A program made the position numbers and the translations under genes. A stretch of 64,000 nt of DNA from a virus (taxonomy: Duplodnaviria; Caudoviricetes), in IMG/VR virus record IMGVR_UViG_3300046460_000097. The stretch is one strand, 5' to 3'. This document shows, one piece after another, positions 7,764 to 43,796 of the stretch (positions are counted from its first letter, which is position 1; each line of letters begins with the position of its first letter). The notes under the pieces were generated by a model. That model was not told the DNA's origin. It was given only the letters and a program-made list of their open reading frames with translations, and made no database searches.

Positions 7764-7952
7764 CGAAATTTATCTATCCTATGCGTGGACCTGTGAGTGC
7801 ACCTCCCTGAAGAAGATAGTTCGTTAGTGGTTCCGCGATGATAGTTTGGAGTACCTACTCGCACTGACCGGTCATGTCCCCCCGTTAGCATCCGGTCAGC
7901 CAGCAATCTATCGCTGGGAAAAACTCCACCTGTACAAACCTGCCCCCTATGG

Positions 7953-8000
7953 TGCCCAGACCCTCCTGCCGGGGTCTGGGTGCTGTGGGTTCTTTTTTTT
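7953..8000 (+). terminator. Intrinsic terminator
   Basis: CCCAGACCC / GGGTCTGGG stem followed by a T-rich tract. Confidence 0.7.
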
Positions 8001-8150
8001 GCATTTTGTTTTAACCGGAAGAGTTTATTTTATACTTGCCTACGTCGTGTCGTTTCCTTGGTTGGGTTTTGACATGCGTAGACATAGGGAGTGGGTCCGA
8101 AATTTACTTCCTGTAGCAGGTAACTCCTCTTCAAGCAATTGTTTCTTCGG

Positions 8151-8193
8151 AAACCCCCTTACTGGCTAACTATGCGGTAAGGGTTTATTTTTT
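8151..8193 (+). terminator. Hairpin plus T tract upstream of the phuZ promoter
   Basis: AAACCC(CC)TTACTG / CGGTAAGGGTTT stem followed by ATTTTTT. Confidence 0.55.
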
Positions 8194-8244
8194 ACTTGAG
8201 AGCCATTTTCTTAGGATGTAGGTAACGGGCTGAAATATTTCAGG

Positions 8245-8257
8245 CCTACATCATTAG
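8245..8257 (+). promoter_or_regulatory. Putative phage early promoter (CCTAYATYAY motif)
   Basis: CCTACATCATTAG preceded by ATTTCAGG, 60 nt before the phuZ ATG; one of six copies. Confidence 0.65.
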
Positions 8258-8317
8258 TGCGTAATCAGTAAATGATTGCACGAATTCATTAACGGTAACT
8301 TCAAAGAGAAAATTTAC

Positions 8318-9316
8318 ATGAATGTTAATAACTCGCAACTCGCTTACTTCCTCTGCGGTGGTACCGGTATCAACGTTGGTGTGGCTCTGAAGGGTGATTC
8401 CAAAACCGACAACAACAAGTCGGCCTTCTTCGTAGGTCTGGATTCCTCCAGCGCCAACTCTTCTCACGGCCTGTTCGAAATCGAATACATGGTCAAAGCC
8501 GGCAGCGCCGACGAGAAGACCCAAGGTTCCGGTAAAGTCAAAGCGACCAACTACCCACAAGCTGAACAGTTCGTTGCCCAGACTCTGGCCAAGCACAAAC
8601 CGCGTCCTTACAACGTCGTGGTCTGCAACACCGCTGGCGGTACCGGTTCGATGCTGGGCTTCGTGCTGGCACGTACGCTGCTGGCTCAAGGTCACCTGGT
8701 CGTGCTGTGCCTGATCAACGACATGACCTCCCAGGTCGAGATGTCCAACGCCGTCGGCTCCCTGCGCTCCTTCGCCAACCAAACCGGCCCGAACTTCCTG
8801 GACACGGTAATCCCGTACCTGGAATTCAACAACACCCTGGAAAACACTCGCGGCGAAGTCAACAGCAACATCGTTGACAAACTGAACATCCTCAGCCTGT
8901 TCCTGACCGGCGAGAATGGCGAGATGGACTACCAGGACGTCAAGAACCTGCTCAGCTACTCGAAGCACTACGGCGTACCGGCGGCTCTGTCGCGCATCCG
9001 TTTCTTCGACGCCGACGCAGTGGCTCAGTTCACTGGCAAAGTTCCGGTGGCCGTTGCTTCCCTGTTCAAGGACAGCAACAGCGTGATCCCTCGCTTCAAC
9101 GGTACCGTGATCCGTTCGACCGGTGTGTTCGCCAAAGACGTAGCCCGTCCGAAGAACACTGACGAACTGCACATGGTCCTGGACCACGGCGAAGCTCTGC
9201 AAGAGCTGGAGCAGAAGATGAAAGAGCTGGACGACCGTAAGGTTGCCTCGTCTTCCAACTTCGTTCAGCAGAAAGATCTGAGCGCCGGCGCTGATGCTTC
9301 GGGCTTCGTACCTTAA
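8318..9316 (+). CDS. phuZ: Phage tubulin PhuZ/TubZ
   Basis: CGGTGINVG T1 loop and NTAGGTGS tubulin signature; short C-terminal tail ending ASGFVP. ATG at 8318 is the likely start. Confidence 0.93.
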   Translation: MNVNNSQLAYFLCGGTGINVGVALKGDSKTDNNKSAFFVGLDSSSANSSHGLFEIEYMVKAGSADEKTQGSGKVKATNYPQAEQFVAQTLAKHKPRPYNVVVCNTAGGTGSMLGFVLARTLLAQGHLVVLCLINDMTSQVEMSNAVGSLRSFANQTGPNFLDTVIPYLEFNNTLENTRGEVNSNIVDKLNILSLFLTGENGEMDYQDVKNLLSYSKHYGVPAALSRIRFFDADAVAQFTGKVPVAVASLFKDSNSVIPRFNGTVIRSTGVFAKDVARPKNTDELHMVLDHGEALQELEQKMKELDDRKVASSSNFVQQKDLSAGADASGFVP

Positions 9317-21072: not shown

Positions 21073-21113
21073 ATAAACCAGGGGAGGGTGTGCCTTCCTT
21101 GGTTTATTTTTTT
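21073..21113 (+). terminator. Intrinsic terminator
   Basis: ATAAACCAGGGGAGGG / CCTTCCTTGGTTTAT stem followed by a T tract. Confidence 0.65.
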
Positions 21114-38387: not shown

Positions 38388-38450
38388 CAGCCATAGCGTC
38401 CCTAACAGCCTGTGAGGGCTGTTAGGGGGCTTAGGTTGTTTATTTTTTTG
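38388..38450. terminator. Bidirectional hairpin with TATGGCTG on the minus strand
   Basis: CCCTAACAGCC / GGCTGTTAGGG stem at 38400-38427; CAGCCATA at 38388-38395. Confidence 0.75.
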
Positions 38451-40686: not shown

Positions 40687-41502
40687 ATGTCTAGCAATAA
40701 ACAAGCCAAGCGTGCGGCAGCTTCGAAACAGAAAAAGAAAGCTGCGAACATCGAGCGTGCCAAGACACAGCAACAGCTGGGACGCCGACAAGAGCAACAG
40801 GACCGTCGTTCACCACAAGCCAAAGCCGCCCGTAACGCACGCGTCGGTTATGCCGTTGCCACCAAAGGCGTGATCGACACAGCCAAAGAACTCCAGAAAG
40901 ATCCTGAGTTCGCCAAGACCAAGATCAAAGCGCTGACCAACATCGAAGTGCTCACCGGCATCAACGAAATGATCCCGGTCCTCGGCGGTGTGCATGGCGG
41001 TATCGAAATCGTTACCCGTCTCAGCGACATGAAGAAGTACGACATCCTGCCGCATCAGGCCGAGATGATCGAAGCCTTCGACCGCAAGGTGATCTCGATC
41101 TCGGAAGACATCCACGCGATGTACGAGTTCATCAACGCCGAGAAGCAGGTCGAAGATTACATGCCGATCTTCATCCACTACATCGACACTCTGGCCGACG
41201 TTGTTCAGTTCGCTATCCCGGAGCTGATGGAAGGTCTGCTGCAGCCGATCGAAGCACTGATCAACGAATACGTGAACGAGCACAAGGCAGAAGGCGAACA
41301 CTCCTCTGCGTTCGGCGCACGCGTCTCCGACGAGCGTATCGTTCGTATCGCTCCTGAATACCGCACCATGCGTCCGCTGGAAGACTTCCTGCCAGACGCT
41401 GATGCTGAAGGCGAAGCAGAACCGACCCCACTGGTAGGCGAACTGCAGCAAGTCGACGAAGCTGGCGCTCTGGAAGCTTCGCTGGCCAAAGAAATCCTCT
41501 GA
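40687..41502 (+). CDS. Hypothetical protein with basic N-terminal and acidic C-terminal tails
   Basis: 271 aa; strong codon bias. Confidence 0.7.
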   Translation: MSSNKQAKRAAASKQKKKAANIERAKTQQQLGRRQEQQDRRSPQAKAARNARVGYAVATKGVIDTAKELQKDPEFAKTKIKALTNIEVLTGINEMIPVLGGVHGGIEIVTRLSDMKKYDILPHQAEMIEAFDRKVISISEDIHAMYEFINAEKQVEDYMPIFIHYIDTLADVVQFAIPELMEGLLQPIEALINEYVNEHKAEGEHSSAFGARVSDERIVRIAPEYRTMRPLEDFLPDADAEGEAEPTPLVGELQQVDEAGALEASLAKEIL

Positions 41503-41524
41503 CCATTAACAAGGACTTATCTTC

Positions 41525-43294
41525 ATGACTGATACTCCTAACACCGACAGCACAGGTACTGAACTGAGTGGTGCTGTCGGCGAAGCTGGTATTGTAGGCC
41601 AAGCATCTGCGCCAGCACAGCCTGCAGCCCCTGTGCAACCTGCGGTAGCGAAAGCTACCCACCAGGACAAGCACAATGCTGCAAACACCACCATGACCAA
41701 CATGGTGCCTCCTGCATCCCCTCTGCTTGCCGAGCTGTCGGTTGCTGAGCGTGAGGCTGGCGGTTACCTGACTGTCTTCTTGGGCAACAGCAAGAAAGAC
41801 GTGCTGGAAGCTCAACAGCTGATCGGTAAGTGGTTCACGTTCAATAGCTTCGTGTCGATGGCACAAGAAGGGCGTGTTAACCAATCGACCATGAACAAGG
41901 CCAATGCCGACTGGGAACAGTACGTTGCAGAAACCTATCCTGGTCGTACTCCGAAAGAGATCGCCGATCATGCTGCTGACCTGTATGCGTACATGTCGGA
42001 GATCCAGGACGAGATCAAGGTTCGTAGTCACGTCTGCAACGAAGCGGGTATCACCAACCTCAGCGATCGTGGCGGCAACTACGTTACTGGCGACATCGTC
42101 GGTAAGAAGCCTGCTCGTTCTACCAAGGGTTTCTCTGCAGCTGAAGTAATGCGTCGCTCTGCACTGCGTTCGAACGGCGACAAGCTGATCTTCGACGTAC
42201 TGCTGCGTGACTCCTTCGTCAGCCTGTCGTTCACTCGTCCTAACCGTCTGGAAATGGGCGACCTGCTGAACGATATCCGTCGTACCATCGTCGGCTATGT
42301 GCGTGAGATCAACAACAACAGTGCGGTCCTTGCTCGCATTGCGTCGATCCGCGTCATCTGGAACTTCCTGGCCACGCGCATTACCTCGTGCAGCGTCTCG
42401 GACATCAGCGACTTCCGCCAACTGGCCAACGTTATCACCCTGAACGATATGGAACAGTTCGTGGTGGCGTTGATCGAGTCCCTGAACACCAAGGGTGTCA
42501 ACCTGAACCTGCGCTGCTTGGCACCTTCCTGCAAGTGGGATGCTTTCCACCTGGTAGAGCCGAGCAAGCTGGTACAGATCCGTCCTTCGCTGCGTGTTCC
42601 AGAAGAGCTGGCTATCTATGCCAACCTCATCAACGGTCATGCGAAGTACACCATCGAAGAAACGCTGGCAATGAGTCGTGCGGCGACCTACGGTTTGGAA
42701 ACGAACCGTGTCTACAACGACGACAAGACCATGTGCTTCCTGATTGCGCCACCTGTGTTGACCGAAGCGTTCAATACCTTCGACTACTTCATCGGCCGGG
42801 TTAACCCTCAGCTGTTCGACATCCGTCAAAAGGTTGTTGATCCAGACGAGTATGCAACCCAAATCACCATGGCTCACAACGAGCTGGGTTCGACGGAATA
42901 CATCCACTGGGTATCGGGTTACATCAACCTGCCAACTCCAGGTACTGACGAAGAAGAGATCATCATTCTTCGTAAGGACACGGATGACACCGAGTTCAAC
43001 GAAGGCGTGATGGCGGTCATTCTGGATCACCCAGACATGAACCGTAACCTGACTCGCTTTATCCTGAACAAGACCCCGTACATGTCTCGCACCTTCATCG
43101 GTGTGCAGAACTACGTGTGCCCTGTGTGCAGCAAGCAGTCGGGCGACCTCCAGGACCCGGAACACTTCCTGGACCGCAAGTTGGGTTATACTCCTATTGA
43201 CCCAATCATGAGTTTTTTTACCCTCACCCAGTTGGCGATGCTGGCGCAAGCGGTGGAGTCGGGCAGAGCCAAGTCCGAAGCCCTCTCCGAATAG
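41525..43294 (+). CDS. Zn-finger virion-assembly protein (T4 gp26/gp51-like baseplate-hub or tail-assembly chaperone); short form of a putative frameshift pair
   Basis: CLAPSC and YVCPVCSK Cys pairs near the C-terminus; ends PIDPIMSFF over the T-TTT-TTT run. Confidence 0.65.
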   Translation: MTDTPNTDSTGTELSGAVGEAGIVGQASAPAQPAAPVQPAVAKATHQDKHNAANTTMTNMVPPASPLLAELSVAEREAGGYLTVFLGNSKKDVLEAQQLIGKWFTFNSFVSMAQEGRVNQSTMNKANADWEQYVAETYPGRTPKEIADHAADLYAYMSEIQDEIKVRSHVCNEAGITNLSDRGGNYVTGDIVGKKPARSTKGFSAAEVMRRSALRSNGDKLIFDVLLRDSFVSLSFTRPNRLEMGDLLNDIRRTIVGYVREINNNSAVLARIASIRVIWNFLATRITSCSVSDISDFRQLANVITLNDMEQFVVALIESLNTKGVNLNLRCLAPSCKWDAFHLVEPSKLVQIRPSLRVPEELAIYANLINGHAKYTIEETLAMSRAATYGLETNRVYNDDKTMCFLIAPPVLTEAFNTFDYFIGRVNPQLFDIRQKVVDPDEYATQITMAHNELGSTEYIHWVSGYINLPTPGTDEEEIIILRKDTDDTEFNEGVMAVILDHPDMNRNLTRFILNKTPYMSRTFIGVQNYVCPVCSKQSGDLQDPEHFLDRKLGYTPIDPIMSFFTLTQLAMLAQAVESGRAKSEALSE

Positions 43295-43758
43295 ATCCGC
43301 GTGGGCGAAGAGGGGAAATAGTCTTCAGTCCTGTTTACAGACAGGTCTACAGTCAGTTGGTCGGTGTGTCTACCGCTCACTTGCCTGAGGAGTCAATGGT
43401 GTTCAGTGAGTCAATGCTCCACGACTTAAACATGAACTACTACAACACCAAGACTAAGACCCCTTTCTCGTCGGTACAGTACTTCAAAGAAGAGCACGAG
43501 TATTATCACCCGTGGTCTCTTAAGTCGAGTGGGAAGATGTTCGGGTTCCACAAGCTCCATGAGGTTATTAGTCTCAAAGACTTCATGGAGTGGCCGATGT
43601 GCGTGACCGATGAGTTGCTGGACGGCATTACGGAGGGAAGGAATGAACGGGATAAGCTGGACAACCCTAACCCTCCGGATGCCGATGGTAAGTCGTCTAC
43701 CAACAAAGATCTTAAAGCAATTATGCAGCAGCTGGGTTTGGATAAAAAGCTCTTTTGA
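43201..43758 (+). CDS. -1 frame extension, giving a fusion product of about 744 aa
   Basis: The open frame begins 12 nt before the slippery site and runs into ORF 43357-43758. The first in-frame ATG is only at 43396. Confidence 0.7.
   Translation, partial: PNHEFFYPHPVGDAGASGGVGQSQVRSPLRIDPRGRRGEIVFSPVYRQVYSQLVGVSTAHLPEESMVFSESMLHDLNMNYYNTKTKTPFSSVQYFKEEHEYYHPWSLKSSGKMFGFHKLHEVISLKDFMEWPMCVTDELLDGITEGRNERDKLDNPNPPDADGKSSTNKDLKAIMQQLGLDKKLF
43213..43219 (+). other. Putative -1 programmed ribosomal frameshift site (T TTT TTT)
   Basis: In-frame AGT TTT TTT ACC. The -1 frame has a stop at 43198-43200 and is then open to 43758. Confidence 0.72.
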
Positions 43759-43796
43759 TTAATACCCCGGGGGCCTTTGGGTTCCCGGGGTATTAA
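43759..43796 (+). terminator. Hairpin after the frameshift extension ORF
   Basis: TTAATACCCCGGG / CCCGGGGTATTAA perfect arms. Confidence 0.7.

Follow-up and report, generated by a model that had tools for sequence, protein, structure and literature searches.

A probable -1 programmed ribosomal frameshift in the phiKZ gp077 gene family of nucleus-forming jumbo phages

We analysed a 64,000-nucleotide (nt) stretch of DNA from the IMG/VR virus record IMGVR_UViG_3300046460_000097 (Duplodnaviria; Caudoviricetes), which we call the window. In the window, a large open reading frame (ORF) is followed by a small one that lies in its -1 frame, and a run of seven T's sits close to the end of the large ORF. 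An initial annotation of this DNA had proposed that ribosomes slip at the run and fuse the product of the large ORF to the downstream frame. When we compared the locus with its relatives, we found that the run and the open -1 frame are kept throughout a large phage gene family, and a programmed frameshift is the probable explanation.

Reading frames at the locus

The large ORF (41525-43294, + strand) encodes a protein of 589 amino acids (aa) and 65.3 kDa. Close to its 3' end, the codons at 43208-43222 read ATG AGT TTT TTT ACC, and the codons divide the T7 run at 43213-43219 as T_TTT_TTT. A TGA occupies 43198-43200 in the -1 frame, which is then open from 43201 to the stop at 43756-43758 (185 codons). 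The first canonical starts in this frame are a TTG at 43357 and then an ATG at 43396. These positions agree with the initial annotation in full (the ORF, the heptamer, the -1 TGA and the open stretch to 43758), and its statement that no ATG precedes 43396 in the -1 frame is correct. A shift after Phe565 is predicted to give a product of 565 + 179 = 744 aa (83.1 kDa, as compared to 65.3 kDa for the zero-frame product) with the junction peptide ...MSFF/YPHPVGDAG, and both the arithmetic and the junction peptide of the fusion of about 744 aa that had been claimed are borne out. The features of the locus are as follows.

41525-43294, + strand: zero-frame gene, 589 aa, orthologue of phiKZ gp077, PhiPA3 gp074, 201phi2-1 gp136 and EL ORF047 (phrog_4585)
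43201-43294, + strand: two-frame overlap; frame 0 encodes the C-terminal helix and the -1 frame a Gly/Ser/Pro/Arg-rich linker
43213-43219, + strand: slippery heptamer T_TTT_TTT, codons AGT TTT TTT, Phe564-Phe565
43219-43758, + strand: -1-frame extension, 179 codons and a stop; the first 59 codons are reachable only via a shift
43295-43395, + strand: apparent intergenic gap, coding in the -1 frame, with the motif FSPxF..V...LLGKS..PE and no canonical start before 43357
43396-43758, + strand: separately callable 120-aa ORF (phrog_19747), with its ATG in a conserved Met/Leu column and GAGGAG before the ATG
43759-43796, + strand: 17-pair terminator-like hairpin directly after the extension stop, the probable end of a shared transcript

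No promoter-like or terminator-like site was found between the two ORFs. Directly 3' of the extension stop, there is a perfect-looking hairpin of 17 pairs (43759-43796) with the arms TTAATACCCCGGG and CCCGGGGTATTAA and a T-rich tail after it, which is probably the terminator of a shared transcript. The absence of a signal between the ORFs together with a hairpin after the extension fits one transcript. On the opposite strand, an antisense ORF of 662 aa (41261-43249, - strand) covers nearly the whole of the large gene and probably arises as an artefact of coding-strand composition.

Residues 28-575 of the large protein match phrog_4585, and the 120-aa ATG-started ORF matches phrog_19747. In the PhiPA3 record, the large ORF corresponds to phiKZ gp077, 201phi2-1 gp136 and EL ORF047, and the small ORF corresponds to 201phi2-1 gp135. 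The proteins named 'gp77' in the Goslar paper and 'gp136' in the PhiPA3 papers are other proteins, not products of this gene. Megablast of the region against GenBank phages gave no match and protein-level searches were required. By tblastn, both ORFs were found side by side in 69 GenBank jumbo phages, and with the Phabio orthologue as the query, the large ORF was found in 168 more distant GenBank phages. A profile search returned 1634 sequence clusters at E ≤ 0.001. The gp077 family is very large and is present in every Chimalliviridae lineage sampled, and the large ORF is a core gene of nucleus-forming jumbo phages. Across orthologues, the upstream product is 530-720 aa long.

In the GenBank records that we opened, the locus is annotated as two coding sequences (CDSs), except in SEGD1, and none of these records annotates ribosomal slippage at the site. 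The start given to the small ORF differs from record to record: relative to the stop of the large ORF, it lies 9 nt after in vibriophages and 218 nt after in KTN4, and in the RAY annotation the small ORF overlaps the large ORF by 136 nt. The profile phrog_12109 has about 33 positions ahead of the start annotated for the small ORF in Phabio. In the literature on phiKZ, jumbo phages and Chimalliviridae that our search covered, which excludes most subscription journals, we found no description of a frameshift at this site; according to the initial annotation, none is known to have been described for this phage family.

Conservation of the T-run and the -1 frame

We examined the window together with 30 close loci, 14 distant named phages (DT01, Phabio, KTN4/phiKZ, PhiPA3, Goslar, RAY, SEGD1, SPFM2, MET_P1, PCH45, RSL2, Eowyn, CR5 and D6), 17 phiKZ-like IMG/VR loci and 4 further metagenomic lineages. 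The counts below rest on 59 distinct two-ORF loci that span the phiKZ, 201phi2-1, PhiPA3, EL, Goslar, RAY, SPN3US-like, PCH45, RSL2 and vibriophage groups and metagenomes, and among them protein identity to the window protein goes down to about 12%. At 59/59 loci, the large ORF is followed by an ORF in its -1 frame, and at 59/59 loci no stop interrupts that frame between a point upstream of the T-run and the small ORF. Excluding loci where the contig ends within it, the extension has a length of 151-183 codons. Among the first 31 loci, a stop closes the +1 frame within 1-6 codons in nearly every case. We counted 0 stops in 1591 codons of the -1 frame from the zero-frame stop to codon 60 past the site, as compared to 91 and 128 stops in the other two frames. 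The initial annotation had named orthologues without the run, or with stops in the -1 frame, as the observation that would speak against its proposal; we encountered none at these loci, and the phase, the open frame and the T-run at 59/59 loci lend strong comparative support to a -1 frameshift onto a start-less downstream frame.

The apparent intergenic gap carries a coding signature in the -1 frame. In the window's clade, differences within the gap number 477, 375 and 803 at codon positions 1, 2 and 3, a third-position excess that comes from an alignment guided by the -1-frame translation and thus somewhat favours that frame; the stop counts are free of such bias. The ratio of nonsynonymous to synonymous substitution rates (dN/dS) in the same clade is 0.22 in the gap and 0.185 in the annotated small ORF. 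The site is thus overlapped by a -1 ORF that is both conserved (open at 59/59 loci) and coding. Of the three stretches compared, the overlap region has the highest nucleotide conservation and lacks a third-position excess, which is what dual coding predicts. The -1 translation can be aligned end to end, and the conserved block FSPxF..V...LLGKS..PE falls within the gap. In many lineages, this block is upstream of any ATG, GTG or TTG, and the first such codon is found at extension codon 85 in phiKZ/KTN4, at codon 66 in loci L018 and L019 and at codon 56 in Phabio.

At the site itself, the heptamer is T_TTT_TTT at 36 of the 59 loci, T_TTT_TTC at 9, G_TTT_TTT at 7 and A_TTT_TTT at 7. Motifs for -1 shifting have been defined as X_XXZ_ZZN heptamers or Z_ZZN tetramers (PMC4066793), and a slippery motif of this kind (X_XXY_YYZ or a Z_ZZN tetramer) is found throughout, as a perfect heptamer at 45/59 loci and as a retained U_UUU tetramer at the other 14. 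The T-run is at least 6 T's long at all 59 loci. The first Phe codon is TTT at every one of them, and a T before it is found with codons for seven different residues (Ser, Asn, Ala, Thr, Leu, Val or Gly). Loci with TTC as the second Phe codon all have a T before the pair and retain the perfect heptamer. Phe is encoded by TTT in 19% of cases in the 46 long ORFs of the window, and of their 48 FF dipeptides 47 start with TTC; the sole TTT TTT is the one within the heptamer at 43213-43219. At the protein level, F564 and F565 do not vary in any of three alignments that contain the window protein; in 45 distant homologues, one and the same Phe of the pair is kept throughout, and the other in at least 90%. 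The window has no excess of T7 runs as such (5 as compared to 8.3 expected), but in view of its codon context and its recurrence at 59/59 loci, the site is not a product of chance. Further T7 or T8 runs are present on the + strand at 7993-8000, 21107-21113 and 38443-38449.

Conservation at the nucleotide level near the site is found in the T-run, in the ACC CTN that follows it and in an 11-nt block, GAAGCCCTCTC, at the zero-frame stop (43280-43294 in the window), which is read as EALS in frame 0 and as RSPL in the -1 frame. The block is near-invariant across loci L001-L030, even at about 40% protein identity, and may represent an RNA signal, or else a motif that functions at the C-terminus or in the linker. 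Since all three elements lie in dual-coded sequence, a role as a signal is inseparable from coding constraint.

The ATG at 43396 falls in a Met/Leu column of the alignment, and the GAGGAG that precedes it with a 3-nt spacing spans two Glu codons that come after a conserved Pro-Glu. This ATG is therefore probably an internal Met rather than a conserved start. In RSL2, a T8 run and the open -1 frame are retained. In the Salmonella phage SEGD1, both ORFs are fused as a single 795-aa ORF, and they are joined by a stretch of about 30 nt immediately 5' of the T-run (approximately 2805-2845 of the SEGD1 locus) that has diverged and holds one additional base. The sister Seoulvirus genomes SPFM2 and MET_P1 retain two ORFs. 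The fused ORF may be a natural way around the frameshift, or the record may have been misassembled, which is possible because the fusion is found in a single record and its sisters have two ORFs. Site, phase, open frame, coding signature of the gap and conservation across the family can all be read directly in the sequences compared here.

Probable ribosomal slippage and its alternatives

We think it probable that these data reflect a -1 programmed ribosomal frameshift that is conserved across the family. Most ribosomes would read to the stop at 43294 and make the 589-aa protein that ends in a C-terminal helix, and a minority would slip back by one base with the two Phe codons of T_TTT_TTT (43213-43219) in the P and A sites. 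In the product of slipped ribosomes, the last 24 residues would be swapped for a flexible linker of approximately 30 residues followed by a helical domain of approximately 145 residues, and the resulting 744-aa protein would end at 43758. As the product of a -1 shift, the downstream 'small gene' would mainly be the 3' part of a long isoform and not an independent gene. That the shift is ribosomal and that its efficiency is low are the parts of this scheme that we infer. A low efficiency is suggested by the finding of no stimulator, and a low-efficiency ribosomal slip is also to be expected from the ranking of U_UUU_UUU well below A_AAA_AAG in E. coli and from the lambda G:GT ratio of 30:1 (PMC5009743).

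Several observations weigh against a ribosomal frameshift. Neither of the stimulatory elements expected at a -1 site was detected, be it a 3' stem-loop (by RNAalifold and shuffled sequences) or a 5' Shine-Dalgarno (SD) element (by eye). Downstream of the site, RNAalifold on 13 sequences gave 0 conserved pairs in an analysis that did not extend to pseudoknots and long-range pairs; the RNA fold of the window is no better than that of shuffled sequence (z = +1.07); and inspection by eye alone revealed no SD-like element upstream of the run. In E. coli, U_UUU_UUU is reported to be much less shift-prone than A_AAA_AAG (PMC5009743). At 14/59 loci, G or A is found at heptamer position 1, so that re-pairing in the P site would be imperfect, and the feature that is strictly kept is a run of at least 6 T's, which is also what transcriptional slippage would need. 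Because the FF pair is kept in the protein itself and in T4 gp26, the T-run is partly an amino-acid constraint. None of the 150 best-scoring homologous proteins has the length of the fusion, and gene callers would not output such proteins anyway. Finally, ATG 43396 with its GAGGAG could start an independent 120-aa protein in this window.

The strict conservation of at least 6 T's makes transcriptional slippage a real alternative, and one that we consider unlikely. The phage or host RNA polymerase would add one U on the run of 6-8 T's, and a subset of the mRNA would then encode the same 744-aa fusion. Chimalliviridae use unusual multisubunit RNA polymerases, which might suit such a mechanism, as would the conservation of a run of at least 6 T's and not of the perfect heptamer (G or A at position 1 in 14/59 loci) and the failure of RNAalifold and the shuffled-fold test to find an RNA stimulator of ribosomal slippage. 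E. coli genes avoid UUUUUUU in every frame, possibly owing to slippage (PMC4066793). Against this, runs of 6 T's are short for known bacterial RNA polymerases, and the 6-T loci are the 14 with G or A at position 1 together with five T_TTT_TTC loci of the vibriophage/LAh10 group. A second Phe codon TTC always comes with a T before the first codon of the pair, which gives a perfect heptamer. All sites are also in the phase for A-site re-pairing, although this is a weak point since the phase is also fixed by the FF codons.

It is very unlikely that these are two ordinary genes, with the small protein made only by its own initiation (at ATG 43396 here and at varied or non-canonical starts elsewhere) and the T-run a by-product of the FF motif, because this account, which can draw on the GAGGAG 3 nt before ATG 43396, the two CDSs in every opened GenBank record except SEGD1, the second product (26') made by internal initiation from T4 gene 26 and the conservation of FF at the protein level, leaves unexplained the -1 phase in 59/59 loci, the -1 frame that is open across the large-ORF stop to the T-run while the +1 frame closes early, the 0/1591 stops in the gap, the purifying selection upstream of starts and the exclusive use of the rare TTT, and is at odds with a window ATG in a Met/Leu column and annotated starts scattered from 9 to 218 nt past the large-ORF stop.

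Possible kinship with phage assembly chaperones and significance

AlphaFold2 confidently modelled the large protein from 19 sequences with a predicted local distance difference test (pLDDT) score of 80.8 and a predicted template modelling (pTM) score of 0.79, and placed a C-terminal helix at residues 560-588. In this model, the shift would replace most of that helix by the extension. The extension itself was modelled poorly (pLDDT 60, pTM 0.32), with its first 24 residues disordered and with helices at 38-48 and 57-70 that are encoded in or at the gap. Four Cys residues of the large protein (C331, C336, C532 and C535) are invariant or nearly so, and the RSL2 orthologue is without the second Cys pair. 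The label 'Zn-finger' in the initial annotation stands insofar as these four conserved Cys are compatible with a zinc site.

Sequence and fold searches gave few clear matches. A sequence profile search of the PDB returned 0 matches, Foldseek against the PDB gave no match at E ≤ 0.001, and a wide VIA-align search returned generic helical hairpins only (Z < 7). Neither the large protein nor the small ORF as annotated (120 aa) had a Pfam match, and the ESM Atlas gave no usable match for the extension. In BFVD, orthologues of the large protein were listed first and were followed by a 'Baseplate protein' (E 6e-18) and by several T4-like entries, each of about 250 aa and named 'baseplate hub assembly protein/hub subunit' (E 1e-3 to 0.3; template modelling (TM) score 0.44-0.59 by target, with 0.51 for the match at E 1e-3). 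In AFDB, a 258-aa protein (E 5.5e-5) covers residues 204-565. A weak match in the ESM Atlas is to a cluster with 87% PF12322 members (TM 0.55 over 247 residues, root-mean-square deviation 4.7), and a language-model feature search gave a cluster with 24% PF12322 members (score 0.90). T4 gp26 and gp51 both belong to PF12322. Two other weak matches are to tail-assembly chaperones: an ESM Atlas cluster with 85% Phage_TAC_4 members (TM 0.59 over 103 residues) covers residues 213-349, and a 119-aa 'Tail assembly chaperone' in AFDB (E 0.39, probability 0.89) covers residues 392-521. An internal duplication, in which the large protein would hold two chaperone-like modules, was considered and is not shown, as hhalign gave a probability of 1.5% between the modules.

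T4 gp26 has two separated Cys pairs, as does the large protein; three of its four Cys (C82, C84 and C190) are invariant and the fourth, C187, is nearly so. The C-terminus of T4 gp26 (...CPECGKTH...EFFELL) resembles that of the SPN3US-like orthologues (SPFM2, ...CPACGKTH...VFFVLS) in a CPxCGKTH...FF motif. T4 gene 26 (7803-8429 of the T4 locus) also yields two products, the second of which is annotated 26'. Internal initiation of 26' occurs at an AUU start codon. In T4, the FF pair is encoded TTC TTT and gene 25 comes directly after gene 26, which indicates that T4 has no such frameshift. Besides lacking the frameshift, T4 gp26 and gp51 differ from the window protein in their PF12322 signature and in length, the window protein being approximately 2.5 times longer. 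The PF12322 hidden Markov model (HMM) gave no match for the window protein, for the DT01, Phabio and LAh10 orthologues or in the nearest available genome record (G001), and 3 of 45 homologues had sub-threshold matches (best E 1.1e-3). With T4 gp26, with gp51 and with an alignment of the gp26 family as targets, the hhalign probability was 1.8-13%. Weak fold similarity, Cys pairs and C-terminal motif make kinship of the large protein with the gp26/gp51 chaperones likely but unproven.

The initial annotation had further described the locus as a G/GT-like chaperone pair. In lambda gpG/gpGT and P2 E/E' (reviewed in PMC5009743), as here, a -1 slip a few codons before the upstream stop joins a shared N-terminal body to a downstream frame that has no conserved start, and the architecture outlasts sequence divergence. 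The weak fold matches of the large protein to tail-assembly-chaperone modules are a possible further parallel, as is the reported non-virion status of orthologues. Comparative sequence supports the two-isoform -1 architecture of lambda G/GT, the isoforms themselves being predicted; size, gene position and a Pfam or hhalign signature do not fit the description. Lambda gpG has approximately 140 aa as compared to the 530-720 aa of the upstream product here (the window protein is 4-5 times larger), and the large protein differs in its four-Cys site and in having no Pfam tail-assembly-chaperone match. Its gene lies beside genes for RNA polymerase beta and DNA polymerase and genes of unknown function, and the same neighbourhood is found at phiKZ-like, EL, RisingSun and Miami loci. 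There is no tail gene next to it and no tape-measure gene, the latter as the initial annotation had pointed out, so the gene does not occupy the lambda G/GT position after the tube gene and directly upstream of the tape-measure gene. We therefore treat the label 'G/GT-like tail-assembly chaperone pair' as only a lead. In phage T7 10A/10B and E. coli dnaX, a homopolymeric heptamer close to the 3' end likewise allows a -1 slip that gives proteins with two different C-termini. In dnaX, strong SD and stem-loop stimulators are present and the shift shortens the protein, whereas no stimulator was found here; in T7 10B, the shift adds a short tail, whereas here it would add a whole domain of approximately 145 residues.

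Chaperones of the lambda G/GT type bind the tape measure by their G part and the tube protein by their T part, and they do not occur in virions. Churi gp256, which corresponds to phiKZ gp077, is listed among non-virion proteins 15 min after infection, and only the large protein of the pair is listed in the Churi proteomics (PMC11849849). The cryo-electron microscopy paper on the Goslar virion makes no mention of 'gp81' or 'gp081', numbers that we assumed for Goslar_00081 and whose equivalence is unconfirmed. The Churi listing and the Goslar non-mention are compatible with an assembly factor and do not prove one. The two isoforms may jointly serve as an assembly factor that stays out of the virion and is related to the T4 gp26/gp51 chaperones of hub assembly. 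Taken together, the arrangement is best described as a probable frameshift of the phage assembly-gene type in the gene of a large Cys4 protein that is possibly related to T4 gp26/gp51.

A broader possibility, which we advance tentatively, is that the tail or baseplate hub of nucleus-forming jumbo phages, and of related myoviruses in far greater number (1634 clusters), is built with a giant gp26/gp51-related chaperone that is made as two isoforms by a G/GT-style -1 frameshift. If true, the T4 hub-assembly chaperones and the lambda G/GT tail-assembly chaperones would be one ancient system, and the 'missing' tail-assembly frameshift of phiKZ-like phages would be supplied. The model phages phiKZ, 201phi2-1, PhiPA3, Goslar, RAY, SPN3US-like phages and PCH45 are now annotated with two 'hypothetical' genes that have inconsistent starts; a recoded isoform of 740-800 aa would correct these annotations and predict new protein species for proteomics and ribosome profiling. 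The site would also be a natural case of efficient-enough frameshifting on U_UUU_UUY without a detectable RNA stimulator. The frameshift offers a testable handle on tail or baseplate assembly in these phages, and it may connect two kinds of phage assembly chaperone that until now were treated apart.

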